A stretch of DNA of 59,528 bases from a virus (Duplodnaviria; Caudoviricetes), in IMG/VR virus record IMGVR_UViG_3300003885_000003, positions 1-59,528 of that record. The stretch is one strand, 5' to 3'. A program made the position numbers and the translations under genes. Under the pieces are notes generated by a model that was not told the DNA's origin, made no database searches, and saw only the letters and a list, made by a program, of their open reading frames with translations. Shown piece by piece: positions 1,004-49,869 of this stretch (the first letter of the stretch is position 1; each line of letters starts with the position of its first letter).

Positions 1004-1069
1004 TGTATCCTACTTTACAGTAAAGGTGTAAAGTAGTTTATAGAGATGGGGGATAGGATCGTTTATACT
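1004..1069 (+). promoter_or_regulatory. Tandem TGTA-N8-TACA boxes plus TATACT -10 (cassette 2 promoter)
   Basis: tgtatcctactttaca 1004-1019, tgtaaagtagtttata 1027-1042, TATACT 1064-1069; same layout at 34796 and 42604. Confidence 0.75.
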
Positions 1070-1106
1070 GTAGTTAGTTAGCAATTAGGTTAACTGAATC
1101 GGAGAA

Positions 1107-1328
1107 ATGGAAATGACAAAAGTAACATTAGAAGAAAGCGGCTACGAAATCGAAATCACAAAAGAAATGATAAATGAAATGGCGCAATATGGTGATACAC
1201 CAAGCGATTGGGGTACAGAGGTAGAAAATTGCGTATGGGTGAGCGTAGATTACGCAAAAGGCGACCCACACTGGGACATCCCGGAGGGGTATCCAGAATA
1301 TCTTCCACTCTGGGAAGAACGTATTTAA
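1107..1328 (+). CDS. Small acidic hypothetical protein
   Basis: GGAG SD; first gene after the cassette promoter. Confidence 0.7.
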   Translation: MEMTKVTLEESGYEIEITKEMINEMAQYGDTPSDWGTEVENCVWVSVDYAKGDPHWDIPEGYPEYLPLWEERI

Positions 1329-1371
1329 TTTATTCTCTCCCTTTTGAAGATTTATTTGAAATTGTGTACCT

Positions 1372-2049
1372 ATGAGTAAATTTGCAAAGGTATGGAATTC
1401 GTCCGCGTCACTAGACGAATTCCTAGAAAAGTATCCCAAAGAAATCAAGCGCAGCAGCGCATATTCAATAGCATCCCGACTAAGAAAACAGGGAGAAGAA
1501 TTAAAATACTTCAATCCTAGATACAGAGAACGGGAGCATGAAAAGAAAGATGCATTCATATATCTCTGGAATTCGTGTGCATCACTAGATGAATTCCTGG
1601 AAAAGTACCCAGGAAATATTAGGAATGACAGCGCACGCTCAAGAGCCTCTTTGCTCAGGAGAGAGGGGCACGAGTTACAATATTGGCGCGATGCGGACAA
1701 TCTACCAATTGCAAAGCTGCGCGATTGGTACACGGCAGCCGAAGCAAGAGAGATGTTTGGCTGGACATCGCGAGCGATTGTTAGCCAAACGGCGAGCCGC
1801 GAAAAGTGGACAAGCGGCAAGATCGGAGGATCGAAATTATATTGGCGTATAGACGTTGATGATTATTGGTTTGCCCGCCAGCGCCGAGAGTTGGCAAAAC
1901 GGGTAGACTGGCTAAATCCAGGTAGCACCCTAATCAGACATGATGATTGGGACATGGATTGCCCAAAGTGTGGGGCATTCGCCATCGGACACTACGGAAA
2001 TAATTGGGTTTGCGTGCGAGGGCACGCAGAAAATAAAGATAATGAATAA
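1372..2049 (+). CDS. Multi-domain DNA-binding protein (duplicated HTH-like repeat, excisionase-like HTH, Zn ribbon)
   Basis: Two copies of WNSxASLDEFLEKYP...AS.LR..G.EL; WYTAAEAREMFG HTH; CPKC...C..GH. Confidence 0.65.
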   Translation: MSKFAKVWNSSASLDEFLEKYPKEIKRSSAYSIASRLRKQGEELKYFNPRYREREHEKKDAFIYLWNSCASLDEFLEKYPGNIRNDSARSRASLLRREGHELQYWRDADNLPIAKLRDWYTAAEAREMFGWTSRAIVSQTASREKWTSGKIGGSKLYWRIDVDDYWFARQRRELAKRVDWLNPGSTLIRHDDWDMDCPKCGAFAIGHYGNNWVCVRGHAENKDNE

Positions 2050-2061
2050 TGGAGAAAGATT

Positions 2062-2262
2062 ATGAATGATAAGATTTTACCATCTTTGCCCATATTTCCC
2101 CGCAATCATCAGGAAGTGCAATTTGCACTCCTTCATCCCCACGCGCAACTTACAGCGTATGCTGTTCCAGCATACGATAATTGGGACGGAGGTATACAGG
2201 ATATGCAGATGTGTGCCTATAGTTTTCAGTTGGGTGCATGGAGCGAATGGGAACCGGTATAA
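2062..2262 (+). CDS. Hypothetical protein
   Basis: GGAG SD; in operon. Confidence 0.6.
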   Translation: MNDKILPSLPIFPRNHQEVQFALLHPHAQLTAYAVPAYDNWDGGIQDMQMCAYSFQLGAWSEWEPV

Positions 2263-2274
2263 GCGGGAAAAGGG

Positions 2275-2680
2275 CGCTGCCAAATTAGCAGCCAAGCCGG
2301 GGGCATTGTACCCGGCAAAGGAAATAAAATGTATTTTTCATGGAGATTTTCAGGGGTATTGTTAGAAAAAAGCGGCCGATTTGTCTATACGCAAGTTGCA
2401 GAGACACCGCCAATAGGCACATTGTGCGAGTTCGTTGATGGGGGACTAGCAATGGCCCCCATCAAGGGGACGCCGTCACAGTACGATTGCGACATGGGGC
2501 GAAACGGACTGCGAGGCCGCGCACACGGAACGCAAATGAAGAGCGGGGGGGCATTTAAGTTTATGGGGGAGAGAAAGGGTGAATTTTGGTTCCGCGATGA
2601 GGAAGGCAGAGTTCCGAATTACTGGCTCAAAGATACGCTGCCAAATTAGCAGCCAAGCCGGGGGCATTGTACCCGGCAAA
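2275..2680 (+). repeat. 45-bp perfect direct repeat (2275-2319 and 2636-2680) flanking one gene
   Basis: cgctgccaaattagcagccaagccgggggcattgtacccggcaaa occurs twice. Confidence 0.9.
2329..2649 (+). CDS. Hypothetical protein
   Basis: AAGGA SD; bounded by the 45-bp repeats. Confidence 0.55.
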   Translation: MYFSWRFSGVLLEKSGRFVYTQVAETPPIGTLCEFVDGGLAMAPIKGTPSQYDCDMGRNGLRGRAHGTQMKSGGAFKFMGERKGEFWFRDEEGRVPNYWLKDTLPN

Positions 2681-2691
2681 ATGATATTGAC

Positions 2692-3075
2692 ATGACTAAT
2701 TACTACAGTTGGAAAGTTGACGAGGACACAGTTATTGAGGATTTCGATTGGGCAATAGAAGCTGCCGAGGGTATCGCAAAATCGCTGGCGGGAGCGCAAA
2801 ATTCGCCAGAAGGCGGCCATGACAAGGAACGATGGCTGAACATGGCAAAAGACATATATGATGATCTCTATGACAGCCTAAGCTGGCGGGCAGACTTCAC
2901 AGCTTCAGATGTGTTCCCTGTGATTTGCGAAGCATTCGCAGAGACGTGCAGAGCGTTGGGCATAACCCCTATACCAGATTTCGCTAAGTTAAATCTGAAA
3001 ACAGAGTACATCCCGACTTACGAACCGGGAATGTCATTTGCACAGATAGCGAGAGGAGAGGGTCGTGATTTTTAA
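2692..3075 (+). CDS. Hypothetical protein
   Basis: 127-aa ORF in operon. Confidence 0.7.
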   Translation: MTNYYSWKVDEDTVIEDFDWAIEAAEGIAKSLAGAQNSPEGGHDKERWLNMAKDIYDDLYDSLSWRADFTASDVFPVICEAFAETCRALGITPIPDFAKLNLKTEYIPTYEPGMSFAQIARGEGRDF

Positions 3076-3107: not shown

Positions 3108-3278
3108 ATGATTGTTTTTCAGGTGTATTTAATTGGTGTCGCTCTGTTTTTTGTCATTGCATACCGCATGAAACTAAGTGACGAAAAACCGCTGCGTAGT
3201 GCATTGTTTTTTGCAATACTATGGCCGGTGATGGCCCCGGCATGGGGGTTTTTAATGGTAGTGGAGTGGGCAACGTGA
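3108..3278 (+). CDS. Small membrane protein (56 aa, not in ORF track)
   Basis: MIVFQVYLIGVALFFVIAYRM...ALFFAILWPVMAPAWGFLMVVEWAT; G-rich SD upstream; terminator follows. Confidence 0.6.
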   Translation: MIVFQVYLIGVALFFVIAYRMKLSDEKPLRSALFFAILWPVMAPAWGFLMVVEWAT

Positions 3279-3300: not shown

Positions 3301-3334
3301 GACCCCGGCTGACACACTCAGCCGGGGCTTTTTT
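3301..3334 (+). terminator. Intrinsic terminator ending cassette 2
   Basis: ccccggctga-cacac-tcagccgggg followed by cttttt. Confidence 0.85.
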
Positions 3335-3337
3335 GCG

Positions 3338-7969: not shown

Positions 7970-8845
7970 TCAATTTGAGCCGGCATTGAACGCCGGGGAA
8001 TCTAGTTGCAAATTAAAGTTTTTGTTTGCCGGATCAACGAGTAGAGGATTTACAATAATGCTACCCGCTCCCAAAGCCGGCGCATTATCTAATAAATACA
8101 AGCAGGAATATGTTATATTAGTTGTCAAGTACCCCTCTGCTCCCCAATCCAAATTACTACCTCGTTGAACATCTATAATTGTATTTTTGATGTTCAATAT
8201 TCCTTGTCCCGTAATAAACAGTTTATCCAATTTCTCTGCTGAATTGTCGAGTAGCGAAAAAACACACCCTAGTATATTAAAAACCGAAGCTGGCCCTGCA
8301 TATATCTCAAAAATCGCCGCATCTGTCACCCCAGATCGTCCAATAATGTCATAAAACAAACAGTTATTCCAAGTATTAGTCATGGTTTTGTTTGACCAAT
8401 TAGAGACAGTCGAAAATAGTGACATTCTTATTCCGGTGGTTAATCTAATCTTGGTAAAAATGCAATTATTAAAAACAAGAGTTCCGACAGAAGCGTTTCC
8501 AGTAGTTACTGAGAATAACGACCCGCTAAGAACTGCATTTTGAAAAGTTATGTTACTAAAGTTCATTATCAGTCCACTGTTACCCATCGCATATAAAACC
8601 GTGTTTGACGCGGCGTCAAACACGGCCCCGCTCGCATTGGGTTTTTCACCTTGTATCGTTAAAGACTTTGTAAATGTCTGATTCGCAAACGTATATGCTG
8701 CCGTGCTGTTCTGGCAAATAATCGTATCACCACTAGCGGCTGAGGTATGCGCTTTTGCAATCGTTAACCAGGGTAAACTACTGCTACCATCACCCGGTGC
8801 CGAATCGTTGCCGGTGTCAGCATTCAAGTAATAAGTCGGCATCAA
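7970..8845 (-). CDS. Right-handed beta-helix (pectin lyase-like) tail spike / depolymerase
   Basis: YYLNADTGND...PWLTIAKA...SGDTI N-terminus; Asn-rich rungs; NPLLVDPANKNFNLQLDSPA C-terminus. Confidence 0.75.
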   Translation of the reverse strand: MMPTYYLNADTGNDSAPGDGSSSLPWLTIAKAHTSAASGDTIICQNSTAAYTFANQTFTKSLTIQGEKPNASGAVFDAASNTVLYAMGNSGLIMNFSNITFQNAVLSGSLFSVTTGNASVGTLVFNNCIFTKIRLTTGIRMSLFSTVSNWSNKTMTNTWNNCLFYDIIGRSGVTDAAIFEIYAGPASVFNILGCVFSLLDNSAEKLDKLFITGQGILNIKNTIIDVQRGSNLDWGAEGYLTTNITYSCLYLLDNAPALGAGSIIVNPLLVDPANKNFNLQLDSPAFNAGSN

Positions 8846-9927
8846 TAAGTACCTCCAAATATCTTTACAGGCGGAGGAAACGCACCCATCGAACGCTTGT
8901 ACCCCTGCACATCTGGCCGGCCATTCAGTCCAACCGATACGCTATTGCCGCTCAATACCCTGATCTCCTCAGTGCTACTAAACGGCGTATGCTGTAAGTC
9001 GCCACTCTCCATCGTAAAGTCATACAGAATCGTGTGCCATGCCCCATCCATGTAAATTTCAAATGTAGGTGGGGAACTGTTCACGACACGGATTGCACGT
9101 TCCACATTGCGGTCATTGCTGCCAATCCGACAGTTAGCGATGTCTTTATTGCTGATGTAAGTCAGGCCGTATCCGGCCGTTGAGCTATCTTTTTCATAGC
9201 CCATGTCTACCCCAGACCTTATGCCGTAATTTATCGGCGATTCGTACCATGCAGAATCAGCAAGGATGAATACGTAATAGCGTTTTGTATCACTTGAAAA
9301 TCCGATGGCATCGGCCGTCGGTGTGGTCGCTAACAGATTGTCACGAGTATCAATCGTGACTTCTAGTCCACCAAGTGTTTCAATTTTAGCATACAGCACA
9401 TTCTTCGTTGCACCATCTAAATCACCATTCCAACCCGCACCATACGCTGTATCAGAAATCATTGCCGCTTGATACTGCGTTACGGCCGTCTCTGGTACGC
9501 TACTGTCCGCAATATTGTCGGTATGTAAAGCCAGATTAAACGCATCACCTGCGACTGGTTGCGGGTCATAGACTGCCTTTGTCATGTAGCCAGCCAGTGT
9601 ATTGGCGCTGAAAGTGTCTGTATCTGCGGCAGCAGCAACGAACGTTTCCCAATCGGTGGCGCTGCCCTGATCCACGCCACTATAAAATGTCTGATTATCA
9701 GGCAGTCGGAAATGATACCTCGCTGCCTGTGTAGCAGCGTCAGGCACTTGCAATGTCAGGCTGAACGTGCCATCGCTATCGCTCACGGCCGTACTGATTT
9801 GATGCTGGTTTATAAATGAGCCACCGGAGAATAAAAACGCGGTCAGCAACGTGGCGCGAACGTTCGTGCCATCTGGGAAATCACTATCCGGGTCTTGCTG
9901 CACTCCTGTGATTATTATCGTTGTCAT
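8842..9927 (-). CDS. Tail fibre / tail-associated protein
   Basis: MTKAVYDP and DTAYGAGWNGD...TKN motifs; N-terminal ~100 aa paralogous to the upstream gene. Confidence 0.65.
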   Translation of the reverse strand: MTTIIITGVQQDPDSDFPDGTNVRATLLTAFLFSGGSFINQHQISTAVSDSDGTFSLTLQVPDAATQAARYHFRLPDNQTFYSGVDQGSATDWETFVAAAADTDTFSANTLAGYMTKAVYDPQPVAGDAFNLALHTDNIADSSVPETAVTQYQAAMISDTAYGAGWNGDLDGATKNVLYAKIETLGGLEVTIDTRDNLLATTPTADAIGFSSDTKRYYVFILADSAWYESPINYGIRSGVDMGYEKDSSTAGYGLTYISNKDIANCRIGSNDRNVERAIRVVNSSPPTFEIYMDGAWHTILYDFTMESGDLQHTPFSSTEEIRVLSGNSVSVGLNGRPDVQGYKRSMGAFPPPVKIFGGTY

Positions 9928-10232
9928 GCTACTGCCGCTGCGACGAACGTCTCCCAGACTGTCGAACTGGCCTGATTTACGTCGTCATAAAAAGATTGGT
10001 TGTCCGGCAACCGGAAATGATACCGTGCCGATACACTAGCATCGTCTGGTACTTGCAGCGTAAGGCTAAATGTGCCGTCACCATTATCGACGGCCGTACT
10101 GATTTGATGCTGGTTTATTAATGACCCACCTGAAAACATGAACGCAGTTTGTAACGTAGCACGAATCTTTGTACTGTCTGGGAACGTGCTGTCTGGGTCT
10201 TGCTGCACTCCTGTAATTGTGATTGTTGTCAT
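9924..10232 (-). CDS. Stand-alone paralog of the N-terminal attachment domain of the adjacent fibre
   Basis: MTTITITGVQQDPDS...WETFVAAA closely matches the N-terminus of 8842..9927. Confidence 0.7.
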   Translation of the reverse strand: MTTITITGVQQDPDSTFPDSTKIRATLQTAFMFSGGSLINQHQISTAVDNGDGTFSLTLQVPDDASVSARYHFRLPDNQSFYDDVNQASSTVWETFVAAAVA

Positions 10233-10648
10233 TCGTTCGGCCTCCAATCCGGCCGTGAATCGTGTTTATTGATTTGATCTATTAATTTGTCAATGCCGGT
10301 CAGCAGACGGTCTACACGTTGGCGAAGTTTTGCATTGACGACCTCCAACTCACCGGCTCTTTCCACATAGACTTTTGCGTCATGTTCTAAGCTGCTCACC
10401 CTGCCACGCAGTTTTGAGTTGACCGTTTTAACACTAGAAATCTGTACTTGTAATTCATGGTTACGCTGTTCCAATACATCCAGCCTCTTTTGCATATCGT
10501 CCAATAGGGCCATCGCAGTCTCCGTTAGTTTTGCAGCCATATCTACACGCCGTTTATCACGGCCGATAAGCCAAGCTGCGGCCGTTGCTAATGCTGTAAT
10601 CACAAATATAGCTATTGGCACGATGCTTAAAATAGTGTCTAAATCCAA
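10229..10648 (-). CDS. Membrane-anchored coiled-coil protein (possible lysis accessory)
   Basis: N-terminal TM followed by heptad repeats. Confidence 0.65.
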   Translation of the reverse strand: MDLDTILSIVPIAIFVITALATAAAWLIGRDKRRVDMAAKLTETAMALLDDMQKRLDVLEQRNHELQVQISSVKTVNSKLRGRVSSLEHDAKVYVERAGELEVVNAKLRQRVDRLLTGIDKLIDQINKHDSRPDWRPNE

Positions 10649-23489: not shown

Positions 23490-23914
23490 TACGCCACATT
23501 CGCTCTGGTCAATGCGCCATTACCAACAAACGGCACAGCCAACTGCAAGGCAGCGGCCGTACTAGCATCACCCGGATATACAATTTGTGTAAAATAGGCG
23601 TTGCCTGAAAGTGCCTCATCCCCTGAGTTGTTACCCGCAACGCTAATTACAAGAGCGCTATTTGTCCCCCCTTCAAACGCAGAGACACACTCAGCATATG
23701 CCTCAGTCGCAGTTTCAGAATAATAAATATTCAGCGTTCCTGACCATCGCCGCTTGCCAACAAGAGCAAAGGCAAAATCGCCATCAGCAGTATAGTGCTG
23801 GCTGTTTTCAATGTCTACAGTTAGCGACGCAGACATTGTAGACCCTGCAATCGCTTGCCCACCCACTGAAACATACAACGCTTTTCCATTAATTATTGTC
23901 GCTGATTGTGCCAT
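23489..23914 (-). CDS. Major tail tube protein
   Basis: GKRRWSGTL, SGNAYFT and FVGNGAL pattern; position. Confidence 0.8.
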   Translation of the reverse strand: MAQSATIINGKALYVSVGGQAIAGSTMSASLTVDIENSQHYTADGDFAFALVGKRRWSGTLNIYYSETATEAYAECVSAFEGGTNSALVISVAGNNSGDEALSGNAYFTQIVYPGDASTAAALQLAVPFVGNGALTRANVA

Positions 23915-24158
23915 CGTCTTTCACCTCATTTGTTTTTACTGTTTTACGCCGTTTTGATTTCACCAATTCAGCCACTTGTTCACGTGGTAAAATCAATGTT
24001 AAGCCGTCTTTTGCCAATAACTTTTTGGCGATGTCATCAGGTAAATAAATATTTTCACCCACCTGATATAACCTGTTTTCCACTCCTAAACGAGCGGCCG
24101 TGCTTTCACGAAGTATAAGTGGCATATCAACAATGTATTTTTTCAGTTCTTCGCTCAT
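23889..24158 (-). CDS. Hypothetical protein
   Basis: YQVGENIYLPDDIAKKLL; coupled in operon. Confidence 0.6.
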   Translation of the reverse strand: MSEELKKYIVDMPLILRESTAARLGVENRLYQVGENIYLPDDIAKKLLAKDGLTLILPREQVAELVKSKRRKTVKTNEVKDDGTISDNN

Positions 24159-24490
24159 GGTAAGTTGAATACTCCAATTGTGACGCTGGCCGTTGCCGAC
24201 CACGTAATATCAATATTGCCATCGGCAGCGTTATAAAGGCTTTTTGCAAATGGGCCGGCCATTTGTTCACCAGTTGTTGCTGCCACGCTAACAACCGTAT
24301 CAGCAATTGCATGGCTCTGTACCGTACCGGCCGTTGTGATTGTGCAAGTTATCACCCCACCTGATGTATTTTTAATATGTATAAATGTACGGCCGTCGTT
24401 GACGAACTCTTGACTAGCCGCAGCAGCAGCATATGAACTTGCTACATTTACACCGTTAAAATCGATTGTATATGTTGTTAGTAGTGCCAT
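24155..24490 (-). CDS. Virion structural protein
   Basis: FVNDGRTFIHIKN...AGPF motif. Confidence 0.65.
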   Translation of the reverse strand: MALLTTYTIDFNGVNVASSYAAAAASQEFVNDGRTFIHIKNTSGGVITCTITTAGTVQSHAIADTVVSVAATTGEQMAGPFAKSLYNAADGNIDITWSATASVTIGVFNLP

Positions 24491-24496
24491 AGTTTT

Positions 24497-29841: not shown

Positions 29842-29880
29842 AAAAAAGAGGCGCATTTTCCGAAGGAAATGCGCCTCTAG
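29842..29880 (-). terminator. Terminator in the leader of the head operon
   Basis: agaggcgcatttcc-ttcg-gaaaatgcgcctct followed by T run on the minus strand, downstream of TTGACA-17-TAATAT. Confidence 0.75.
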
Positions 29881-29958
29881 TTTTTTCAACTCTAAGCTAT
29901 TATATTTATATTATGTTATTTAGGTCTTTTTGTCAAGCAAAATAAATCAATACAATAC

Positions 29959-30016: not shown

Positions 30017-30916
30017 TCATTCTGGATTATTAACACCATTATATGGTGTACCAATCAACTTTATTTTCTTCATTTTCATCGCAGTAGTTGGCTTTACATA
30101 TGATAATGGTAAATCTGTCATCCACTTATTCCACGCATAAGCAGAAACGCGCGCAAATGCAACCGTTTTATATCTTACGAATTCGCCCGTATTACGACCA
30201 ACACTCATCTTTATAAAACTTTTATGTAACGCAAGTCTAGGGTCTTTTCCAGACAATTCGTTTAACTGAGCTACAGACTGCCAAAAATCCAATGCACGAC
30301 TCGGTTGGTATTTATATGTTATCATTGCAATAGACATAATACCCTTTGATTCTATTTTGCTACGAATCATTGAATCACACGGGGAAATAGCGTTTCTAAT
30401 AGCAGTAAATTCATCCAAGTACTTATATACAAATTGTATTGTATCTTCATGTGATACAATTGGCTTGCTTGCACTTGTTGGAAAACCTGCTTGAATATAC
30501 ATTGCTGCTGCTGACAATTTATTAGTAAGTCCCTTTGTCAACCCTATTTTTTCAGGGATACCATAGGCCGTTAAGCTGTCAGAATATGTTCGACTTTTGC
30601 CAATGTCATAATGGGCATATAGTGTTTTAACTTCATCTTCACTTATTACATAATGTTTTACAATTGGATTCTGTTTTAATGTGACTCCCGATTCCCGAAC
30701 TGATAAAAGCGTATGCTGCCCATTGACTAAAATACGTTTATTATTTAGCACAGCAAATGCAATCGTATTTGATGGGTTCCACGCACCATTACGCATTTCA
30801 TTTGCGTAGTGCAAAATACGCTGTTTGTTAATTGGTCGATTGCTGGCAAAGTTTTCGTCTATCCACATCGCAGCTTTCGCGGGAGTAATATTTTCTATTG
30901 TTGCAACTGTATTCAT
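30017..30916 (-). CDS. ParB/DGQHR-like phage protein
   Basis: ITP..A......NRP......YA.EM..G.W.....I.F......NGQHTL. Confidence 0.7.
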   Translation of the reverse strand: MNTVATIENITPAKAAMWIDENFASNRPINKQRILHYANEMRNGAWNPSNTIAFAVLNNKRILVNGQHTLLSVRESGVTLKQNPIVKHYVISEDEVKTLYAHYDIGKSRTYSDSLTAYGIPEKIGLTKGLTNKLSAAAMYIQAGFPTSASKPIVSHEDTIQFVYKYLDEFTAIRNAISPCDSMIRSKIESKGIMSIAMITYKYQPSRALDFWQSVAQLNELSGKDPRLALHKSFIKMSVGRNTGEFVRYKTVAFARVSAYAWNKWMTDLPLSYVKPTTAMKMKKIKLIGTPYNGVNNPE

Positions 30917-31063
30917 CGTTTAATCTCCATGTTATTTTATGCAAAAAACGCACGTTTTTTTGTTGCATATTTACAACAAAAAAACACGTTATATGAAAAA
31001 TCTATTGACAAGTTTTGCAAGAAGATTAAAATGACACTAGTCAAGTACATTTTATTTCCCTTA

Positions 31064-31095
31064 CAAAGGCTCGCTCAATTAAGCGAGCCTTTTCT
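31064..31095 (+). terminator. Intrinsic terminator
   Basis: aaaggctcgct-caatta-agcgagcctttt. Confidence 0.75.
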
Positions 31096-31412
31096 TGTTA
31101 TTTCATAATATATACGACAACTTCTTATCCGTCAATCAAAAATACGTAACTAAACTTACCCCAACCTCTCTAATCGCACACCGTGATTTACCCGCAGCCA
31201 CCACACCCCGTCTATCGCCATAACCTGAATCATCATGGACCATCAGTGCCATGATTCTGCGGTGCAATTTTGCCGAACGGCCGTTGGTAGGCAATCATAA
31301 TTTATGATTTCTTCAACAAATTCAATAAGCGGTTCAACAAGTTCAAGAATTACATCCAATTCTGCAAAAAACGCTTCTTCCTTACTCGATGCCAAATAGT
31401 TTTCAAACATAG

Positions 31413-34751: not shown

Positions 34752-34795
34752 CATAGATTATAGCATACTTTCGCTATTTTCACTTAATATAAAAG

Positions 34796-34861
34796 TGTAT
34801 AGCAGTTAACACAAAAAGTGTAGCGTCGTTGATAAAGATTGGACTATAAATCGTTTATACT
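34796..34861 (+). promoter_or_regulatory. Tandem TGTA-N8-TACA-like boxes plus TATACT (cassette 4 promoter)
   Basis: tgtatagcagttaaca 34796-34811, tgtagcgtcgttgata 34819-34834, TATACT 34856-34861. Confidence 0.7.
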
Positions 34862-35048
34862 ATAGTTAGATAGGAACCCGGCTTAAGAGTATGGCAACTG
34901 GAACGAGAAACCCGGTAAAAATAAATGAAATCGTTGGAGATGCAAACAAGCAATTAAGTGGAATTGCAAGCAGATAAAGAGAGCAACGAACAAAAAGAAG
35001 TTGCCCCAACTGAACTTCCACTTAATTGAAAGGATATTTAATTTAGCA

Positions 35049-35412: not shown

Positions 35413-35467
35413 TGCGAAACGGCCGTAACCGGCCGTCATGGGGATTGGCAACCCCATCTGATGAGCA
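35401..35467 (+). ncRNA. Type II hammerhead ribozyme
   Basis: TGC-GAAA-[CGGCCG taac CGGCCG]-TC-[ATGGGG attggcaa CCCCAT]-CTGATGA-GCA: complete core, GUC cleavage triplet and three stems. Confidence 0.9.
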
Positions 35468-36447: not shown

Positions 36448-36510
36448 AAACAAAGGCCCGTGTTAGCTGCGAACTAACACGGGCAAATAACCAAAAAAGG
36501 TAGGGCTTTT

Positions 36511-39844: not shown

Positions 39845-40010
39845 GATCACCATCCATATCATCTATACTGTTAAAAATTCGGAAACGGCCGTTGCTTAAA
39901 TCCGAATCAGTTGTGTCCTCGCGTCTTTGCCACTCTTCAGCCAAGTCCCACATTGTATCTAAATCAACCGAACTGCTGCTGTCTGTATCCGGGTAAATAT
40001 ATATTTTCAT
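39816..40010 (-). CDS. Small acidic protein between TerL and portal
   Basis: GGAGG SD before MKIYIYP; ATGA overlap with TerL. Confidence 0.45.
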   Translation of the reverse strand: MKIYIYPDTDSSSSVDLDTMWDLAEEWQRREDTTDSDLSNGRFRIFNSIDDMDGDHGKSTSSTS

Positions 40011-41293
40011 GCTATCCTCCGCTTGCCACCACTGCCCCAGCGTGATGAAATTTGCTGTTCTTGCTGCAATTCGTCCATTCCCCCCCAACCCCCGCTATGA
40101 GCAATTCCTTGCCATGCAATAGCTAATGCCATTACCGTATCATCGTGCATTCCTGATGGCGCACTATAACTATACCCCGACGCAATCTTCTTAGCTTCGT
40201 ATGCTGATAATTCGTTTATGGTCGTATCGTCTGGCAATATGCTGATTTCCTGATGTTCAAAAGCAGACTGCAATAATTGAATAATCGGCGCCTTTGTTGC
40301 ACTACTGGTATGAAATGGAACGATCAGCATGTCTCGCTGTCGCAGATGATCGATAACTGGCTGACCAATACTGTTATCCTCAATTATCATGGATTTTAGA
40401 TTGAAACGACCGTATACTGCATGAAGCCGATCTTCTAGTGCAGTGTAGCCAATGCGCCGAAACCTGTCCTTGTATACCTCGCTCCGGGTTGCAACATCAA
40501 ATACAGATACTACTGTATAATCAGCGGCATCGGCCACATCAACACCAGCAATATATTGTTTAGCTCCATCAGCCGCATCTAGCCAGGCCGACGTTGCACA
40601 TTCAGTTATATTGCGAAATACCATGCCCTCACCGCTTACAATTCTGGCAAGATATTCTTGATTAAACAGCCATGTGGGAACCTCCCGTTTTACTTCGTCA
40701 ATGGCTGAATTCTCAATATACTGATTGTCATAGGACGTTGCATGAAGTTGCAGCCAATTATCGCGATCTGCTGCGCCACGCCATAACTGAGCCGCCCAAT
40801 TGTTGCCTTTCGGTACACCGGAAAATGCCGCCCATCCGCTAAAATCCAACAATGTCGCCTGAATGTATTCCTGCCAGACAATCTCTTGCATTAGACTGAA
40901 TTCATCTAATACAACTCCGCGAATGCCTTCTCCCGCCAATGACGATGGATTATCGGCCGTTCGGAACCAAATTTCACCTAAGCCAGGTAGACGAATTTCA
41001 AAGCGACTACGATTTATATGTTCTCGCTCCACCAAGCCCAACGCACGAATAACCTTCCTAGCAATCGTTGTTACTTCACGCCAGGCACGTTTCATTGATG
41101 CGCTGCGCCATGAAATACCTGTCCACCAGTAAAGACCAGGTTGTAACTGCATATGATAAAATATGCGCTGCACCATACCATCAGTTTTCCCATATCGCCG
41201 GCCAGCAAAGATCACGACGCTGCCAGGGTATTCTATCATCTGCCGCTGTGTTGTAGAATGCGGGGCCTTTAGTGCTATATCAATTGTTATCAT
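40007..41293 (-). CDS. terL: Terminase large subunit
   Basis: GRRYGKT Walker A, VVLDE Walker B, GVPKG, GVDVA...DYT, HDDTVMALA. Confidence 0.95.
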   Translation of the reverse strand: MITIDIALKAPHSTTQRQMIEYPGSVVIFAGRRYGKTDGMVQRIFYHMQLQPGLYWWTGISWRSASMKRAWREVTTIARKVIRALGLVEREHINRSRFEIRLPGLGEIWFRTADNPSSLAGEGIRGVVLDEFSLMQEIVWQEYIQATLLDFSGWAAFSGVPKGNNWAAQLWRGAADRDNWLQLHATSYDNQYIENSAIDEVKREVPTWLFNQEYLARIVSGEGMVFRNITECATSAWLDAADGAKQYIAGVDVADAADYTVVSVFDVATRSEVYKDRFRRIGYTALEDRLHAVYGRFNLKSMIIEDNSIGQPVIDHLRQRDMLIVPFHTSSATKAPIIQLLQSAFEHQEISILPDDTTINELSAYEAKKIASGYSYSAPSGMHDDTVMALAIAWQGIAHSGGWGGMDELQQEQQISSRWGSGGKRRIA

Positions 41294-41735: not shown

Positions 41736-41770
41736 AAAAAAGCCCCGGCTGATGGGGTCAGCCGGGGCTA
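41736..41770 (-). terminator. Terminator ending cassette 3
   Basis: agccccggctga-ccccа-like loop-tcagccggggct followed by T run on the minus strand; same family as 361 and 3301. Confidence 0.8.
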
Positions 41771-41930
41771 GTGAATAAGTTATTCATACGTAATAAGCAA
41801 CTCTATCCATAGCAGAAAGAGCTCGTCGCTTTCACCCCCATCAAAATTCTCTCGATAATATTCACGCAAGACACTGACAAAATTTCTTTCAGTGTCTTCT
41901 GTTATTTCTGGTATTTCTGGCATCTTCATT

Positions 41931-42416: not shown

Positions 42417-42597
42417 ACGTTACATCGAACATCGAGGTTTGCTGTAACTCGCATAATTTATCGAAGGATACAACTTTGTTTTCTGTATGTTTCCCGCAAT
42501 TGATCATCTGAATTACATAAAACTGACTGCTTTGGTCAGCTGCTTTTTTATCACACTCTGTAATTGCTTGTTTTCGTGTCAGTTTTGTTTTGCTCAT
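42397..42597 (-). CDS. Hypothetical protein, probably leaderless
   Basis: ATG 6 nt after TATACT. Confidence 0.55.
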   Translation of the reverse strand: MSKTKLTRKQAITECDKKAADQSSQFYVIQMINCGKHTENKVVSFDKLCELQQTSMFDVTYANYGG

Positions 42598-42603
42598 ATC
42601 TAT

Positions 42604-42669
42604 AGTATAAATGATCCCATGACCAACTTCTATAAAGTAGGACACACCTTTACTGTAAAATAGGATACA
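42604..42669 (-). promoter_or_regulatory. Tandem TGTA-N8-TACA boxes plus TATACT (cassette 3 promoter)
   Basis: Boxes at 42654-42669 and 42631-42646, TATACT at 42604-42609; reverse complement nearly identical to 991-1029. Confidence 0.75.
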
Positions 42670-42690
42670 CTTTTATGTGAAGTGACTAGC

Positions 42691-42916: not shown

Positions 42917-45103
42917 CTAGAATTTGATGGCTTCAGCCACCTCATCAAGCCTGAAACAAGCCTGCGGAGGGGTGTTTTTTGAAGTGGTGTCCCCGTTAAC
43001 AGGTATCTTTTTTTTCTTATCTGCTATCGGGGACAAATCGCCATCTACACTGCTGATACTCGACAGGATTGCCAGTTTTTTACTGGCTACAATCTCGTTG
43101 TCGCCGGCGCGTGGGCCAATTCCTTTAATGCGATACTGTTCACCGGCCGCATCAAGCGCCTTGATCATATCAATAACTGATAAATCCTTTGGCTCAAAAT
43201 TGCCGGCTGGCAAATCCTCATCAAAAAACGCACGAACTGCCAATCGCATTTTATGCCAATCAACACCATAAATACCCCACGTCACTTCGTTTGAGGATTT
43301 ATCATTATCAGATTTGTCTGTCACTTCGTTACCTCCACGTTTACTTGTCTGATTGCCCCACGTGCCCAGGCCACGAAACGCCCGGTGACCCTTTGGCGTG
43401 TTCAATACCCACTCACCGACCAGATTAAACAGTTCAGCCATATCTGCCGGAATAGGCGTTCCTTCCTCATCTACAGCATCATGTAGCACAACTGAACGGC
43501 CGTTGCCGATGTTGGAAATGGCATAGCTCAGGTGGGGGTCATTGCGTTGTCGCTGTTTTTTGAGTTTGCCAGTTAAGCGTTTTGCGTCCGCATTATCAAG
43601 AATGCAAAACGTCATCAGATTGCTGAACTGATAAGTATTGTTGCACGCCGCGATGATCTTCTCACAGTATTGTAAAACACGCTGCCGGCGGCAATGCTCA
43701 CACGGCGGCACATAAATACCGCGTGACATAAACCCGCGCCAATTGTCCCACGGCTGACGCATTATGCGGGATACATTGTAATCAATGTTTTTTGTACACC
43801 AGTGATTTGAGCACGTCTTAATCGTTTCGTTAGGAGGATATTCACCACTAAAATACTCTGCGGTTGGCTCTACTGTGAATAGATCAGTAGCTAACACATC
43901 CCCGGACAAGCGCTTCGCAGTGTAATCTGCCATCAGTTTGAAATCAAGATCAAGATCAACGGCCGTATCTGTTGACCTTGAAACGGCCGTGCCCAACGTG
44001 CCGGGCGGCGCAAATGTGGCCGGCACGTTGTCGGCAACAGCCCCAATCGGCCGATGTCCTGGTGGAGGGGTTGCAGGATGCTCTGACCCGCGCATCACGC
44101 CATCATGCCATGCGCGGGTCATGCTGGCCTCTCCATACTCCGCCACATAGCCATTGTCAATGCAGGCATCAATAATGGCCTGCGGCATCTCGGCAGATAC
44201 ATCATCAGTCCACCCAGCGACAATGAGACTGCCAAATCGTGCAGCCGCCATGTATAGCGGCTTGTGTCGCGATTCCGTTGTAGCTGCCAGGTCAGCGGCG
44301 ATACTGGCTATTGTAGCATTGAGATATTCGGCGGCATCTCCAACAAATGGCACAGCATTTTTAGCGGCCGTTTCTAGGCGTAGGCGAAGAGCATCCTGAG
44401 CTTCTATATACGGCCGTAAAATCACACGATTGAATACATTAAACTTGCAGGGAGTATCCCATGTGCCGACGGGGTGAATATTGGCGCCGATCTTATTGAA
44501 CAGCAGAGATACGGTGGACGTCGGCGCAGCGTCAGTTGTGGCTTTGTAGTGCCACTGAAACGCCTTGATACAGTCCTGTAACAATTGCGGGTTGTTGTCA
44601 AACGCTGGTGTTTTCTTCAACCACAAAACCGGATGGCCTTTTTCGGCCCCGGACAGGCTCGATGAGGACTCAATAAATAATGATCCATGTTGCCCGAAAA
44701 ACGGGTCACTAAACCATCTGTCAATCACGCCAGGCTTTTTGCTGTCATCGTCCAGGGTCAGGATAATGCAATTTGCACGGCCGTCTACGTAAGCGTTTTC
44801 AAATTGTCGCGGGGATGCCGCGTTACGTTTCGGATGGTCTAGCGGGAACTGGCGGGGCCAGCGCTGCACGTATGATTGAGAGTAAGTGCAGCCATCGGCC
44901 ACCAGAGCCACAAATGAATCTATATCATGGCGTTCAGTCGTGTAAGCCAGGTTGTCGCCGGTTGCCTGTTTGTAGCCTGTGTTCCGTCGCACAGCCAGAA
45001 TCACAGTATGGTCTGCGTCCGGGGATGCGTAGTTTACGATTTCTGGCGGTGGAAATTGTGTACCGTCGAAAGTGGTCACGATAGGTTTGTTTGTATTATT
45101 CAT
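42917..45103 (-). CDS. Putative replication protein (primase-polymerase-like N-terminus, PriCT-like helical region, Zn finger)
   Basis: LTLDDD...ESSS......KGH; SRH..LY.AA...G...; CSNHWC and CEHC; largest early gene. Confidence 0.5.
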   Translation of the reverse strand: MNNTNKPIVTTFDGTQFPPPEIVNYASPDADHTVILAVRRNTGYKQATGDNLAYTTERHDIDSFVALVADGCTYSQSYVQRWPRQFPLDHPKRNAASPRQFENAYVDGRANCIILTLDDDSKKPGVIDRWFSDPFFGQHGSLFIESSSSLSGAEKGHPVLWLKKTPAFDNNPQLLQDCIKAFQWHYKATTDAAPTSTVSLLFNKIGANIHPVGTWDTPCKFNVFNRVILRPYIEAQDALRLRLETAAKNAVPFVGDAAEYLNATIASIAADLAATTESRHKPLYMAAARFGSLIVAGWTDDVSAEMPQAIIDACIDNGYVAEYGEASMTRAWHDGVMRGSEHPATPPPGHRPIGAVADNVPATFAPPGTLGTAVSRSTDTAVDLDLDFKLMADYTAKRLSGDVLATDLFTVEPTAEYFSGEYPPNETIKTCSNHWCTKNIDYNVSRIMRQPWDNWRGFMSRGIYVPPCEHCRRQRVLQYCEKIIAACNNTYQFSNLMTFCILDNADAKRLTGKLKKQRQRNDPHLSYAISNIGNGRSVVLHDAVDEEGTPIPADMAELFNLVGEWVLNTPKGHRAFRGLGTWGNQTSKRGGNEVTDKSDNDKSSNEVTWGIYGVDWHKMRLAVRAFFDEDLPAGNFEPKDLSVIDMIKALDAAGEQYRIKGIGPRAGDNEIVASKKLAILSSISSVDGDLSPIADKKKKIPVNGDTTSKNTPPQACFRLDEVAEAIKF

Positions 45104-45292
45104 TGCTTTGCTCCTAGATGGCTGTTGGCTCTCTTGTCCCACTTCCTGGCGTGTTCCATGCTGTTGCTCAGGTAATCAAGCGGGGGCTTTGGTACACAGT
45201 CACGGCGCAGCAGCCTACACCGCAATTCGTAGCTGATGGCATCGCGCAGGAAGTCACGGCGATTATTATTGTACACACGATACACGATACTG

Positions 45293-46332: not shown

Positions 46333-47181
46333 TCATATCTCCATTTTAGTCTGTCGCAGATGCACGTCTAAATCAGGCCGTGCATTATGCGACCTGTCAC
46401 ATATCCATAGTATCTCTGTGCGGCTTTCGCCCCGCAATTGCTTACTGGCTGACATTACAGTCTCAATCTCTATACGTTCCTGTGCTGACTGAGGCTCAAC
46501 ATCCTGCGCGTAGTTGCTCAGGATGTAGCTGCCTGTAGCATCGTCTAACGTCGTACAAAGAGCCGCCCAATCTGCGGCCGTGTAGCCGCTATAATGACCC
46601 TGTTGTGAGCCAGGGTAAGGCGGATCCAAGTAATGCAACGTTTGCGGCGAATCCCACCTCTCTATGAACTTCAGCGCGTCGATGTTGTCCACAAATACAC
46701 CGCGTAGCCGGTCTAGCTGTGCCGGCAGTCTGTGCAGCTTACGCTGCCATGTACTGGCGTGATTACGACTAACTTGGCCAAAACTCCATCCTGCATTAGC
46801 TTTATTTGCAAATGATTGATTGAGGTTCACAAACACGGCCCATGCAATCTCCATATCCGAATAGTCACCAGGCGCTTTCCATATTTCACAAGCCAGCCGG
46901 TGTTCTTCCTGAGCGTACAATGTAAGGTCGAGTCGTCGTTCAAGTTCGGCCGGCTGGTCACGGGCCACACGGTAAAACGTAGTGATAACGCCGTTGTTGT
47001 CGTTAATGGCCTCGCGGTAGTAATGTGACGACCGGCGCACAGGGCGCGGCTTAGCAAACAGCAACGCTGCGCCACCTGCGAAGGGTTCGCTGTATACCGT
47101 GTGTGGTATACGATTAACCTGTTTCAGCAGGTGGCGCATTATGCTCTGTTTGCCGCCGTAATAACTGAGGAGTGGTTTCAT
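46333..47181 (-). CDS. Dam-like (D12 class) N6-adenine DNA methyltransferase
   Basis: YYGGK, YSEPFAGGAA, EAIND, YLDPPY, ILSNY, EILW. Confidence 0.92.
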   Translation of the reverse strand: MKPLLSYYGGKQSIMRHLLKQVNRIPHTVYSEPFAGGAALLFAKPRPVRRSSHYYREAINDNNGVITTFYRVARDQPAELERRLDLTLYAQEEHRLACEIWKAPGDYSDMEIAWAVFVNLNQSFANKANAGWSFGQVSRNHASTWQRKLHRLPAQLDRLRGVFVDNIDALKFIERWDSPQTLHYLDPPYPGSQQGHYSGYTAADWAALCTTLDDATGSYILSNYAQDVEPQSAQERIEIETVMSASKQLRGESRTEILWICDRSHNARPDLDVHLRQTKMEI

Positions 47182-47567
47182 AGCTCAGTTTCTGTGATCT
47201 CGCCGTCAGTCACGTCAATTACGCAGATATAATCCCCACCTTCCCACACAAGAAGCGCTTTAAGATGACCCGTGCTTTTCATGAGAGCCGGCAGTATAAC
47301 TTTCTGGTATGCTGTTCCGCTGCCCTCACCGGACAACGAGATTTTATAGACATACAACATTTTGGTTTCTATGTTTCCAGTTTCTTCTATTACACTCTCT
47401 CCAAATGATGTAGTAAAAATCATTTTCGTTTCATTATGATTTAATGCTACTTGATACTGCATACAAAACCCTTTGCGTTGCATATCGTCACTAAATTGCA
47501 ACGCAACAAGCGGCATTTTCAGCCTGTGCAGTGTTTTCGTGCGCCAGTTTGTTATGTTGTAGCTCAT
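47178..47567 (-). CDS. Hypothetical protein
   Basis: GEGSG...LVWEGGD...V.DG motif. Confidence 0.7.
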   Translation of the reverse strand: MSYNITNWRTKTLHRLKMPLVALQFSDDMQRKGFCMQYQVALNHNETKMIFTTSFGESVIEETGNIETKMLYVYKISLSGEGSGTAYQKVILPALMKSTGHLKALLVWEGGDYICVIDVTDGEITETEL

Positions 47568-47965
47568 AATAATGTTTTCGCTTTGAGGTGGCTTACCAGG
47601 TCGGCTATCCGGGTAACCATGTCGTTGATCAGGTCGTCTACCCTGTTGGCTATCAGGTCGGCAACCAGGTCGTCTACCCTGTTGGCTATCAGGTCGTCTA
47701 CCCTGTTGGCTATCAGGTCGGCAACCAGGTCGGCAGCCAGGTCGGATAGGTAGCCAACAGGGTCGTCTACCCGTTTTGCAGCCAAGTCGTATACCAGGTC
47801 GGCAACCAGGTTGTCTACCAGGTCAGATAGGTAGCAAACCTGGTCGTCTACCCGGTTGGCAGCCAAGTTGTCTACTAGGTCGTTTACACCAAATTGCAAC
47901 GCATCAAGTAAAGGTTCCAGTACGTGCAGTATTTTCGTGCGCCAGCGGGTTATGTTGTAGCTCAT
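47564..47965 (-). CDS. Tetrapeptide-repeat protein with N-terminus duplicated from the neighbour
   Basis: MSYNITRWRTK; VDDL/VADL/IANR repeats. Confidence 0.5.
   Translation of the reverse strand: MSYNITRWRTKILHVLEPLLDALQFGVNDLVDNLAANRVDDQVCYLSDLVDNLVADLVYDLAAKRVDDPVGYLSDLAADLVADLIANRVDDLIANRVDDLVADLIANRVDDLINDMVTRIADLVSHLKAKTLL
47595..47885. repeat. Degenerate 12-bp tandem repeat array
   Basis: caggtcgtctac, cctgttggctat and caggtcggcaac units. Confidence 0.85.
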
Positions 47966-48020
47966 AATTCACGCCCTTTAACGGCCGTTACCACGCGATA
48001 ACGGCCGTTTATGCTCCCGC

Positions 48021-48788
48021 TTAAAACGGCACTTCGTCAGCTTCGATTTCAATAGGCTGTGGATTGGAATCTTCTGGATATTCGCCGATGTCTGCACTAA
48101 CAACCAGATTCTTTAACTCGTTTTTCAGTTGCGCCAACTGTAAGATTTCTTTTCCTACAATCGGGTCACCTTGAATAAAGGTTGGCACAACCCATGTCCC
48201 CCGGCTATCTGACTGCGTAATAGTCGATACAAAGATTGATTTCCGTAATCCTGTACGCTGTGCCAATGCTGTCAGGGTACGCGCCGATTTCAAAGAAGTC
48301 GATTGCATCGTGAGAATTGCGGGTTCTTGCGTTTCAATGACCCACACAAGGAAGTTTCTTTGCCGCGTACATTGCGGTTTTTCTCCGTTAACAAACTGGC
48401 CCATTGGGCATGTGTTGCAGGGGCCAGGCAGTGGAGCGGTTGCATTTTCACCGTCAGGCATTGCGCCATTGTTTGATTTGCAAACCGGGCTGTTCTCGCT
48501 GTCAAACTTTTCAGGCCACATAACGCGAGTATCTAGCATATACATTAAGACTACAATATGTAAATCTTGTTCATATATATGCCCTGTGAGGGTGTTGACC
48601 CACAGGCCTGGGGTTACAGGCTGGTCGTTTATCTGCATTGGCCGATTTTGCGAACTCACACGTAATCGAGCCGGCATCCCCACATCACCGTCTTTCAAGT
48701 TTTCAACGCCTTCAGGCGTAAGGTCAAGACTGTTTAGAAGTGCTATTTCTTCTTCTGTCATACCGTCTACTACAATTAGATCGTTCAT
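48021..48788 (-). CDS. Phage single-stranded DNA-binding protein-like
   Basis: C.S.NG...C..CP..QF......C motif, TSLK, acidic DEVPF tail. Confidence 0.7.
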   Translation of the reverse strand: MNDLIVVDGMTEEEIALLNSLDLTPEGVENLKDGDVGMPARLRVSSQNRPMQINDQPVTPGLWVNTLTGHIYEQDLHIVVLMYMLDTRVMWPEKFDSENSPVCKSNNGAMPDGENATAPLPGPCNTCPMGQFVNGEKPQCTRQRNFLVWVIETQEPAILTMQSTSLKSARTLTALAQRTGLRKSIFVSTITQSDSRGTWVVPTFIQGDPIVGKEILQLAQLKNELKNLVVSADIGEYPEDSNPQPIEIEADEVPF

Positions 48789-49336
48789 TTTGTCTCCTTC
48801 AGACAATTTAACTTAGCTGCTGCTAAGTTCAGTTGGGCGACGTACATCATATTGCGCCGGCCAAACTCTTTTATCGTTGATTCGTAATGGGTCACCATTG
48901 CTTTCTGGCGGGCGATTTTATTCTCGGCCAGTTGAAAGTTTCGTGATAACTCAATATACAAATCATTCTCAATCAGTATCTTTTTCCCTGCTGCCTTACG
49001 CAGCGAATCGTTGCTGTACAGCGGTTTGCCTTTGTCGTTGATTTCACAAGCTGCCTCAAAAAACGCGGCATCTTCCATACCAGCTAATGTGGTTTTTATC
49101 GCCGATTGTGGCTCCTGCAAACCAAGCAATTCACTGACTGCCTGATTCAATTGGCTCCCAACATCTTTATACTGTTCATAAAGCTGTTTGGATTCAGACT
49201 CCAGCGTTTCAGTATCGGGCATTTGTGGACGAAGGGCAGCCTCCATTTTCGCGGCCCACTTTGCCATGCCGTCAATTCTCGTTTTTATCTGATTTATCTC
49301 TTGAGCCATAGATAGTTCTTCTGTTCGTACTGCCAT
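48785..49336 (-). CDS. Coiled-coil hypothetical protein
   Basis: GGAGG SD; GKPLYSND..RKA. Confidence 0.7.
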   Translation of the reverse strand: MAVRTEELSMAQEINQIKTRIDGMAKWAAKMEAALRPQMPDTETLESESKQLYEQYKDVGSQLNQAVSELLGLQEPQSAIKTTLAGMEDAAFFEAACEINDKGKPLYSNDSLRKAAGKKILIENDLYIELSRNFQLAENKIARQKAMVTHYESTIKEFGRRNMMYVAQLNLAAAKLNCLKETK

Positions 49337-49382
49337 ATTGTTACCTCCATGCCGGGGAAGTCACGCTTCCCCGGCAACTAAT

Positions 49383-49772
49383 TTATCGCAATTCACCGGC
49401 ATGTTCTGCACAACGTAGCATTGTTGTTTTGCTGTGCTTCCGGCAAATAACTAAATGAAAACGAGCTCGTTTACGGCAGCGTGTTAACACGCCGTTAATG
49501 CGGTCTTCTCGGTCGCAAACACGACGACCTGTGTATGGTTCGTCAGTGCTTACAGTGTGTCCTGTGCGCGGTTCGTCCAGGGGATCAGCGGAATCGGCTT
49601 CTTCCAGTGCGCTATCGGTTTGTGTGTATCGCTGCATAATGTGATCCATTATGCAGGTGTAGGCTGTTACCTTTTCGCTTGGAACCGTGTCCAAGCTAAT
49701 CCAAGTGTCAACCTCTATTAGTAAATCTGCATACGCTTTTTTGTAGTCCATTGTTGCCTCCGTTTCATTCAT
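49383..49772 (-). CDS. Hypothetical protein, first of the leftward operon
   Basis: ATG 6 nt after TGGTATACT; Cys/His-rich C-terminus. Confidence 0.55.
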   Translation of the reverse strand: MNETEATMDYKKAYADLLIEVDTWISLDTVPSEKVTAYTCIMDHIMQRYTQTDSALEEADSADPLDEPRTGHTVSTDEPYTGRRVCDREDRINGVLTRCRKRARFHLVICRKHSKTTMLRCAEHAGELR

Positions 49773-49778
49773 ATTAGA

Positions 49779-49869
49779 AGTATACCATTGATATTTTCTG
49801 TATGTGTTAAGCGGTTTACAGTGTAGGTGTAAAGTACTTAACACTTGTAAATGAATATTGATGTACACT
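49779..49869. promoter_or_regulatory. Divergent early control region with two TGTA-N8-TACA-like boxes
   Basis: Boxes 49805-49820 and 49828-49843; TATACT leftward (49779-49784) and TACACT rightward (49864-49869), each 20 nt from a box. Confidence 0.7.

Follow-up and report, generated by a model that had tools for sequence, protein, structure and literature searches.

The window, a stretch of 59,528 bases that was analysed as a whole (IMG/VR record IMGVR_UViG_3300003885_000003), is the complete genome of a phage of the Caudoviricetes, 59,437 bp plus an exact 91-bp terminal redundancy. It contains eight 16-bp boxes that form four pairs with a start-to-start distance of 23 bp, at 1004/1027, 34796/34819, 42631/42654 and 49805/49828, all eight where a preliminary description of this DNA had placed them. 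Three pairs precede self-contained units of small genes, designated cassettes A, B and C, of which C is read on the minus strand, and the fourth pair lies in a divergent control region, D. Judged from the sequence, the promoters that carry these boxes are a real, well-defined class that has the geometry of class II activation and is conserved in two phages. The boxes are the predicted sites of one dimeric activator of the host, most likely a member of the CRP/FNR family acting in the class II mode, a reading that is preferred here but held tentatively.

Tandem boxes

Each cassette consists of an upstream block, two boxes, a -10 element, a conserved start region (RTAGWT), four to six small open reading frames (ORFs) and a strong terminator. 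All eight boxes have TGT at positions 1-3 and A at 14 and 16, and five have C at 15; they thus have the TGT-N10-ACA frame of the 16-bp dyad in class II CRP/FNR-dependent promoters. The dyads are imperfect, the right half (TT.AYA) being invariant while the mirrored left-half positions are AA in only 3/8.

The motif scan suggested in the preliminary description bore out the tandem arrangement but not the single motif. The consensus given there, with up to three mismatches, had three matches in the genome compared with 0.20 expected, a number reached in 0/100 shuffles. The strict TGTA-N8-TACA pattern was not enriched by itself (two matches versus 1.2 expected; 35 of 100 shuffles reached two), nor was the pattern of invariant columns (17 matches versus 13.4 +/- 3.9). 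Tandem pairs with the 23-bp spacing were found at four loci (five counts, with D in both orientations) and in none of 100 Markov simulations. When each locus was left out in turn from the matrix, the held-out boxes ranked 2, 4, 7, 22, 9, 12, 16 and 6 among 118,844 positions. The tandem architecture is not due to chance, though the single-site statistics are weak.

Cassettes A and C are 82% alike over 87 nucleotides (nt), A and B 75% over 61 nt, and the core of D is 88% identical to that of A over 25 nt. Because of this likeness, the four loci are best regarded as partly paralogous copies rather than four independent inventions.

Promoter geometry

The gap between the proximal box and the -10 element was 21 nt in the three cassettes and 20 nt on both sides of D, with no TTGACA-like -35, as reported before. 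None of the five box promoters has a usable -35; the hexamers at a 17-bp spacing in the cassettes are TAGAGA (4/6), TAAAGA (3/6) and TAGAAG, and a loose promoter scan passed A alone, with a score of 9/12. The -10 elements, TATACT or TACACT, have the form TAN3T, which together with the missing -35 is the arrangement of a class II CRP/FNR-dependent promoter. TATACT is present exactly at almost every likely promoter of the phage. Canonical TTGACA-N16/17 promoters exist in the same genome at 29936 (minus) and 31005 (plus), so the polymerase can read a -35, and the box promoters truly differ in lacking one.

The position of the start sites follows from the spacing of initiation codons. At three promoters, those of cassette C (42597), the endolysin gene (966) and the leftward operon of D (49772), the ATG of a long ORF lies exactly 6 nt past TATACT; the last has an additional ATG, preceded by a Shine-Dalgarno sequence, 21 nt beyond 49772. 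A TATTAT/TATAAT-N6-ATG layout was also found in three other viral records, L014, L015 and G001, discussed below. This leaderless layout fixes the -10 element and the predicted start site, so that the proximal box is centred at -41.5 in the three cassettes and at -40.5 in D, near the -41.5 of class II sites, the start being inferred from the ATGs. The class II geometry that had been proposed is therefore real, with the 6-nt ATG spacing at the C and endolysin promoters putting the proximal box at -41.5. The distal box is centred at about -64.5.

The GTA-N8-TAC element lies 22 nt from the -10 box. Canonical NtcA promoters, according to the part of PMC3898017 that describes them, have a 16-bp dyad of the GTA-N8-TAC type about 22 nt before a TAN3T -10 element, centred at about -41.5, and no -35. 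The resemblance to NtcA-type spacing noted earlier thus holds, both in the TGT-N10-ACA frame and in the 22 nt to the -10 element.

Conservation of the site in a second phage

A search with the capsid protein retrieved an IMG/VR contig of 49,347 bp, designated G001, that has direct terminal repeats and is rated complete. One box was found in this phage, on the minus strand at 6818-6803, followed by a 21-nt gap, TATACT and GTAGTTAATTA; it, too, has the TGT-N10-ACA frame. Compared with cassette A, the box is identical at 15 of 16 positions and the -10 element at 6/6, while the gap, 21 nt in both, is identical at 5 of 21. The first 11 transcribed bases agree at 10/11 and the next nine at 2/9. The surroundings are like those of cassette A, with a GH25 gene (within an ORF of 832 amino acids) on one side and a run of small genes on the other, and the proteins that flank the site had no match in the window phage. 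Towards the divergent GH25 gene, 14 nt separate the G001 box from a TATAAT, which places the box centre at about -34.5, and the ATG is found 6 nt past this TATAAT. The G001 box and box D2 score nearly equally in either orientation.

Eleven proteins are common to the two phages, among them the head module, the portal, a DUF6610 protein (61% identity), a protein of 108 amino acids (83%) and an RyR-domain protein. No further common protein was detected by tblastn (E <= 1e-3), phmmer (E <= 10) or blastp (E <= 20), and there is no recognisable DNA-binding protein among the 11. The HTH_Crp_2 and cNMP_binding families had no match in the six frames of either phage, in a search in which the control genomes scored. 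G001 has 55 copies of the palindrome ACGGCCGT, about one per kb, like the window phage; the abundance of ACGGCCGT in both suggests a common host clade, and the two phages likely infect the same one.

The exact module (box, 21 nt, TATACTRTAG) was found at two loci in IMG/VR, both of the G001 lineage, and nowhere else in that collection. A search of IMG/VR with the box pattern gave 13 loci, all set aside as chance matches for want of a second box or a TATACT in any of them, and a candidate third instance, in record G004 (a box-like site, 22 nt and TGG-TATAAT in an intergenic region), was too weak to count. Of the loci found with the large terminase subunit TerL, the 11 that were inspected, including the eight best matches, have only TerL in common with the window phage, and no box scoring above 16 was present in 485 kb of such loci; they are consequently of no use for comparing regulatory regions. 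In two of them, L014 and L015, the terminase genes are preceded by a canonical, box-free promoter, TTGACA-N17-TATTAT-N6-ATG, whose orthology with cassette C is not demonstrable. Relatives of this kind carry triple repeats of their own between genes, in the form of inverted arrays around a spacer of about 70 nt (GTAACGG, TAGACAG, GTATACNG), at 2533-2756 in L027, 2531-2728 in L032, 9254-9428 in L044 and 526-673 in L049, which look like regulatory or origin sites.

A candidate activator of the host

The preliminary description had left open whether the boxes are read by a host CRP/FNR protein or by a phage protein. The retention in G001 of the box, the gap length, the -10 element and the first transcribed bases, with no detectable common regulator, favours the host. 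Since neither phage encodes an HTH_Crp_2 or cNMP_binding domain, a factor of the CRP/FNR family would have to be host-encoded. Moreover, a site kept at 15 of 16 positions in exact register, amid decayed surroundings and without a common phage regulator, is most simply explained by a slowly evolving host protein as its reader, and the putative binding factor is more likely of host than of phage origin. We infer that the boxes are bound by a protein which is encoded by the host, is a member of the CRP/FNR family and activates rather than represses.

In the proposed mechanism, a dimer bound to the proximal box, centred at -41.5 in the cassettes or -40.5 at both D promoters, would replace the missing -35 and bring the sigma-A RNA polymerase of the host to the -10 element TATACT, with RNA synthesis beginning 7 nt beyond it. 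Another dimer, bound 23 bp farther upstream and facing nearly the same side of the helix, would probably bind cooperatively and raise occupancy. In D, the two near-symmetric boxes would serve both divergent promoters. One host factor could in this way gate two long early or replication operons and the three self-contained small-gene units.

Host NtcA sites have been predicted on promoters of T4-like cyanophages, where the part of PMC3037559 that deals with them provides a precedent for a host factor borrowed for many genes. Because the borrowing of a CRP-family activator has already been proposed for cyanophages, the principle is not new; novelty lies in the arrangement of the sites in tandem, in their presence throughout the early programme and in the uncultured vent lineage in which they occur. 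Several features set the present sites apart from those of NtcA: they are tandem, 23 bp apart, the proximal boxes end in TATA or GATA rather than TACA, and the whole early programme rather than scattered genes carries them. NtcA itself is an unlikely reader and a cyanobacterial host is almost certainly excluded, as the window has no copy of HIP1, the phage sequence was found in a single sequencing run, from a hydrothermal vent metagenome, and its capsid homologues (62-77% identity, in metagenomes) include two labelled as Chloroflexi or Anaerolineales metagenome-assembled genomes. This evidence is indirect, but a weak Pam3_Gp34 Pfam match is the one pointer to cyanobacteria.

The class II and class III promoters of E. 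coli CRP and FNR are likewise similar, with a TGT-N10-ACA frame, a site at -41.5 that replaces the -35 and an upstream site that can add activation. The half-site here is TGTAA, unlike the TGTGA or TTGAT of the E. coli proteins.

The lytic decision of the earlier suggestion, tied to the state of the host, is not supported. No integrase, transposase or partition family was matched among the 104 ORFs scanned, so a choice between lysis and lysogeny is not evident.

Several observations weigh against a host activator, 1) G001 has a single box and no pair, 2) among eight other viral records rich in ACGGCCGT, the pattern of a box plus -10 occurs in one (G004), weakly, so a wide use of a host regulon by phages is not evident, 3) since A, B and C are paralogous, the constant 21-nt gap within the genome is partly inherited, 4) the distal box, at about -64.5, is out of register by about 3 bp with the upstream activator positions of E. 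coli CRP (class I about -61.5, and -71.5), 5) tandem sites 23 bp apart are typical of cooperative phage repressors, 6) small DNA-binding proteins can diverge beyond detection by sequence, so that a common phage regulator is possible, 7) a promoter-like site, E, has the core of cassettes A-C, GGGATCATG-TATACT-ATAGTTAGAT, without boxes, so core and boxes are separable modules, and the core may fire unaided, which fits repression as well as activation and 8) there are no RNA runs among the listed holders of the phage sequence.

If a host factor does switch these promoters on, the start of infection would be tied to a host signal in a phage with no lysogeny machinery, and the box could be used to find the host and its regulon in metagenomes. 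The comparison with G001 also provides a clean, testable example of a regulatory site conserved in two phages that no longer have recognisably related genes around it. A stronger version, in which the whole early programme (the divergent operons and the three units) is unable to fire without one CRP/FNR-type metabolic sensor of the host, is doubtful. Were it true, the physiological state of an uncultured vent bacterium would gate infection, other phages of that host, though unrelated, would have retained the same "password" box at one of their units, and the paired boxes would give the phage the advantage over host promoters in competing for a scarce factor.

Phage-encoded candidates

The three phage proteins that had been put forward as regulators (1372-2049, 49898-50218 and 52662/52695-52931) are poor candidates for the activator, having no CRP/FNR domain and no counterpart in G001. 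The product of 49898-50218, with an N-terminus that resembles a ribbon-helix-helix (RHH) domain by eye, has weak RHH evidence: its structural neighbours in the Atlas are RHH_1 clusters with template modelling (TM) scores of 0.44-0.62, and the AlphaFold2 model has a predicted local distance difference test (pLDDT) value of 68. Foldseek gave nothing at E <= 0.001, CopG (2cpg_B) appearing at E 3.4, and there was no Pfam match at E up to 5 and no homologue in 5.8 billion proteins. The protein of 1372-2049 appears by eye to combine several helix-turn-helix (HTH) motifs and a zinc ribbon; in the Atlas it neighbours HTH_17 clusters, with a TM of about 0.3, and its AlphaFold2 model (pLDDT 36) was not used. 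A weak match to a LexA-type winged helix (E 0.013) was found for 52662/52695-52931, and a protein of 129 amino acids had a single weak match (E 2e-4) and otherwise no homologue in the databases searched. HTH_3, CI and Cro were not matched among the 104 ORFs, nor at E up to 5 in 18 regulator candidates and other unassigned ORFs. Sequence searches of the PDB with five proteins gave nothing usable, and NCBIfam nothing above the cut-offs.

Alternative readings

It is conceivable, though on balance unlikely, that the boxes are read by a phage regulator, above all the RHH-like product or else another small ORFan. It would bind cooperatively as a pair of dimers or, if of the RHH type, with four dimers on half-sites 11-12 bp apart, four in number, and would serve either to shut off or autoregulate the early units or, made from box-free promoters, to activate middle genes. 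The boxes lie in a divergent control region with the RHH-like gene beside it, and autoregulators are usually encoded by the first gene of an operon. The resemblance to CopG, Arc and Mnt extends to the four half-sites about one helical turn apart and to an operator on the -35 side; however, the RHH assignment is weak, as described above, and the ORFan is absent from G001. The lambda CI operator pairs are another parallel, with dyads of 16-17 bp that are 23-24 bp apart (centre to centre) between divergent promoters and a proximal dimer near -42, at OR2, that can activate PRM. Site E, with its equal core promoter and no boxes, fits a phage regulator too, and so do the phage-specific repeat arrays of L027, L032, L044 and L049. 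Such a protein could be expressed first from box-free promoters (E, 32797 on the minus strand and the canonical ones at about 29.9-31.1 kb). Unlike in lambda, no CI/Cro-like HTH protein, integrase or lysogeny gene was detected in the 104 ORFs, both divergent promoters are symmetric to the boxes, the sites recur at three distant units and a second phage has the same site without a common regulator. The boxes overlap the -35 position by only about 2 nt and stop 20-21 nt before the -10 element, which is unusual for a repressor and differs from a CI/Cro switch, and with no -35 and no TGn in A, B and C the promoters look too weak to need repression. No candidate has a counterpart in G001, whose box is nonetheless kept at 15/16.

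Two further explanations have about the same, low probability. One, a repressor of the host (a global regulator or a stress sensor) that silences the phage units until a host signal changes, is improbable; it shares the arguments for a host factor, and host LexA does hold the lytic promoters of some phages. The G001 box, centred at about -34.5 relative to the GH25 promoter, is in a repressing position there, and site E suggests that the core is active unaided. Against this, the strict register of 20-21 nt at six promoters in two phages points to contact with the polymerase rather than simple occlusion, the missing -35 makes unaided activity doubtful, the TGT-N10-ACA frame differs from LexA boxes, and the phage would gain little unless it could persist in the cell, for which no genes were seen. 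It is also rather improbable that there is no dedicated regulator and that the boxes are part of an extended intrinsic promoter, with -35-like TTTACA/TTGATA elements, phased bending A/T tracts or an UP-like element and possibly an alternative sigma factor, that was copied around the genome as a whole. Each half-site is -35-like (TTTACA, TTGATA, TTAACA), A/T tracts occur about every 11 bp, A, B and C are duplicated copies in which bases outside the boxes are conserved too, and the near-uniform TATACT hints at a special mode of recognition. However, these hexamers are 20-21 nt from the -10 element, outside the usual 16-18 nt; dyad symmetry is strongest where both directions are served (the G001 box and D2); box, -10 and start region but not the spacer are kept in G001; and 23-bp tandem sites were absent from all 100 simulated genomes.

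Two other roles were considered and rejected. A parS or iteron function was discarded in view of the fixed promoter register of the boxes, and a phage RNA polymerase reading the TATACT-RTAG core is not supported, as the sole large unassigned ORF (741 amino acids, no Pfam match) looks by eye like a primase-polymerase.

Organization of the transcription units

Positions of the promoters, gaps and selected genes in the window
Feature	Position	Strand	Description
Cassette A promoter	990-1076	+	Upstream block ACTTAACATAAAAG; boxes 1004-1019 and 1027-1042; 7-nt spacer
Cassette A gap	1043-1063	+	21 nt; precedes TATACT
Cassette A core	1064-1069	+	TATACT, then conserved start region GTAGTTAG
Endolysin promoter (A-)	966-978	-	Divergent; TGG-TATACT (978-973), 6 nt, ATG 966; leaderless
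Cassette B promoter	34782-34868	+	Boxes 34796-34811 and 34819-34834; 21 nt; TATACT 34856-34861; ATAGTTAG
Cassette B gap	34835-34855	+	21 nt; precedes TATACT 34856-34861
Cassette C promoter	42597-42683	-	Boxes 42669-42654 (distal) and 42646-42631 (proximal); 21 nt; TATACT; 6 nt; ATG 42597, leaderless
Cassette C gap	42630-42610	-	21 nt; precedes TATACT 42609-42604
Divergent region D	49779-49869	both	TGG-TATACT (-), 20 nt, box 49805-49820, 7 nt, box 49828-49843, 20 nt, TACACT (+)
D- gap	49785-49804	-	20 nt; TATACT 49784-49779
D+ gap	49844-49863	+	20 nt; TACACT 49864-49869
Site E, promoter-like	59462-59488 (also given as 59468/31)	+	Also at 25-51 in the terminal redundancy; no boxes
GH25 endolysin	400-966	-	Family match; ATG at 966
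TerL terminase	40007-41293		Family match
RHH-like ORF	49898-50218	+	106 amino acids; first gene after D+; N-terminus RHH-like by eye

Cassette A drives the region 1107-3075, with five annotated ORFs that include the putative multi-HTH gene; a small hydrophobic ORF at about 3108-3276 also belongs to the unit, which ends at a terminator at 3303-3327. A 45-nt exact direct repeat lies within it (2275-2319 and 2636-2680). Box A1 is 25 nt from the -10 element of the divergent endolysin promoter, centred at about -45.5, off the class II register. The genes of cassette B extend to 36447, the last encoding a DUF6908 protein, and are followed by a bidirectional terminator at 36456-36484. Cassette C drives four small genes (42597-41780) up to a terminator at 41769-41741, with the terminase genes beyond. 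The leftward operon of D, which begins at 49772, contains replication-type genes, including that of the 741-amino acid protein, and the rightward operon begins at 49898 with the RHH-like ORFan. The 741-amino acid ORF (42917-45142, minus) had no Pfam or PHROG match; DxD and sxH-like motifs such as those of primase-polymerases are visible by eye, and the protein is probably the replicase of the leftward operon.

Further box-free TATACT promoters were seen between genes on the minus strand at 32797, 34669 and 45680, each with a TGn-extended -10 element, and that at 32797 has the TATACTATAGG start region in common. One bidirectional terminator, CCCCGGCTGA-N5-TCAGCCGGGG, is present in three copies (365-395, 3303-3333 and 41737-41773) that end the E/endolysin units, cassette A and cassette C, respectively. 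The canonical minus-strand promoter TTGACA-N17-TAATAT (29936-29908) is directly followed by a strong terminator (29878-29847) and then by the head-tail operon of about 26 kb. The layout of 29847-29936 resembles lambda PR'-tR' with Q antitermination, although a Q-like gene was not identified. A low-GC island at 30917-31135 contains a near-consensus promoter (31005-31032, plus) with a terminator about 25-60 nt farther on (31065-31092), facing a promoter-terminator pair on the minus strand (31135 and 30988-30951). These elements are possibly small RNAs or an antisense pair beside a moron-like gene at 30017-30916.

Phage genome and likely host

The genome has about 104 ORFs, few of which matched known families in a profile scan; apart from the genes in the table, the matches were a Mu-type portal, a major head protein, a tape measure protein, three DNA methyltransferases, DUF6610 and DUF6908. 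A near-identity search of a phage collection gave no match, and a search of genome contigs gave TerL relatives of less than 30% identity only, with no prophage relative and no host.

The palindrome ACGGCCGT occurs 57 times in the window (for example at 35420/35430 and 47982/48002), about once per kb, whereas base composition predicts 0.6 copies. Its core, CGGCCG, is present 110 times versus 8.4 expected, and copies occur in coding and intergenic DNA alike. Several other IMG/VR contigs (L236-L306) with 47-59% GC have 1-3.7 copies of ACGGCCGT per kb, and two of these records are classed as proviruses. The iteration is a HIP1-like feature with another sequence that may mark the host clade or be linked to the phage methyltransferases. 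A full-text literature search met the string ACGGCCGT in 293 papers but gave nothing useful, the ten that were listed appearing to contain primers or unrelated sequence.

The genes for the 108-amino acid protein, which by eye resembles GNAT proteins, and for its DUF6610 neighbour lie at 53148-54208 in the window and at 23553-24577 in G001. With the identities given above they are the best-conserved non-structural genes of the two phages, compared with 72% for the capsid protein, and they may form a DNA-modification pair. Elsewhere in the genome, the adjacent ORFs 47178-47567 and 47564-47965 are paralogous, with an array of 12-nt periodic repeats at 47577-47890, and an 82-nt repeat is found at both ends of the 47489-47968 region. 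A tandem duplication of 300 nt (73% identity), at 9624-10228, extends across the junction of the tail-region ORFs 8842-9927 and 9924-10247.

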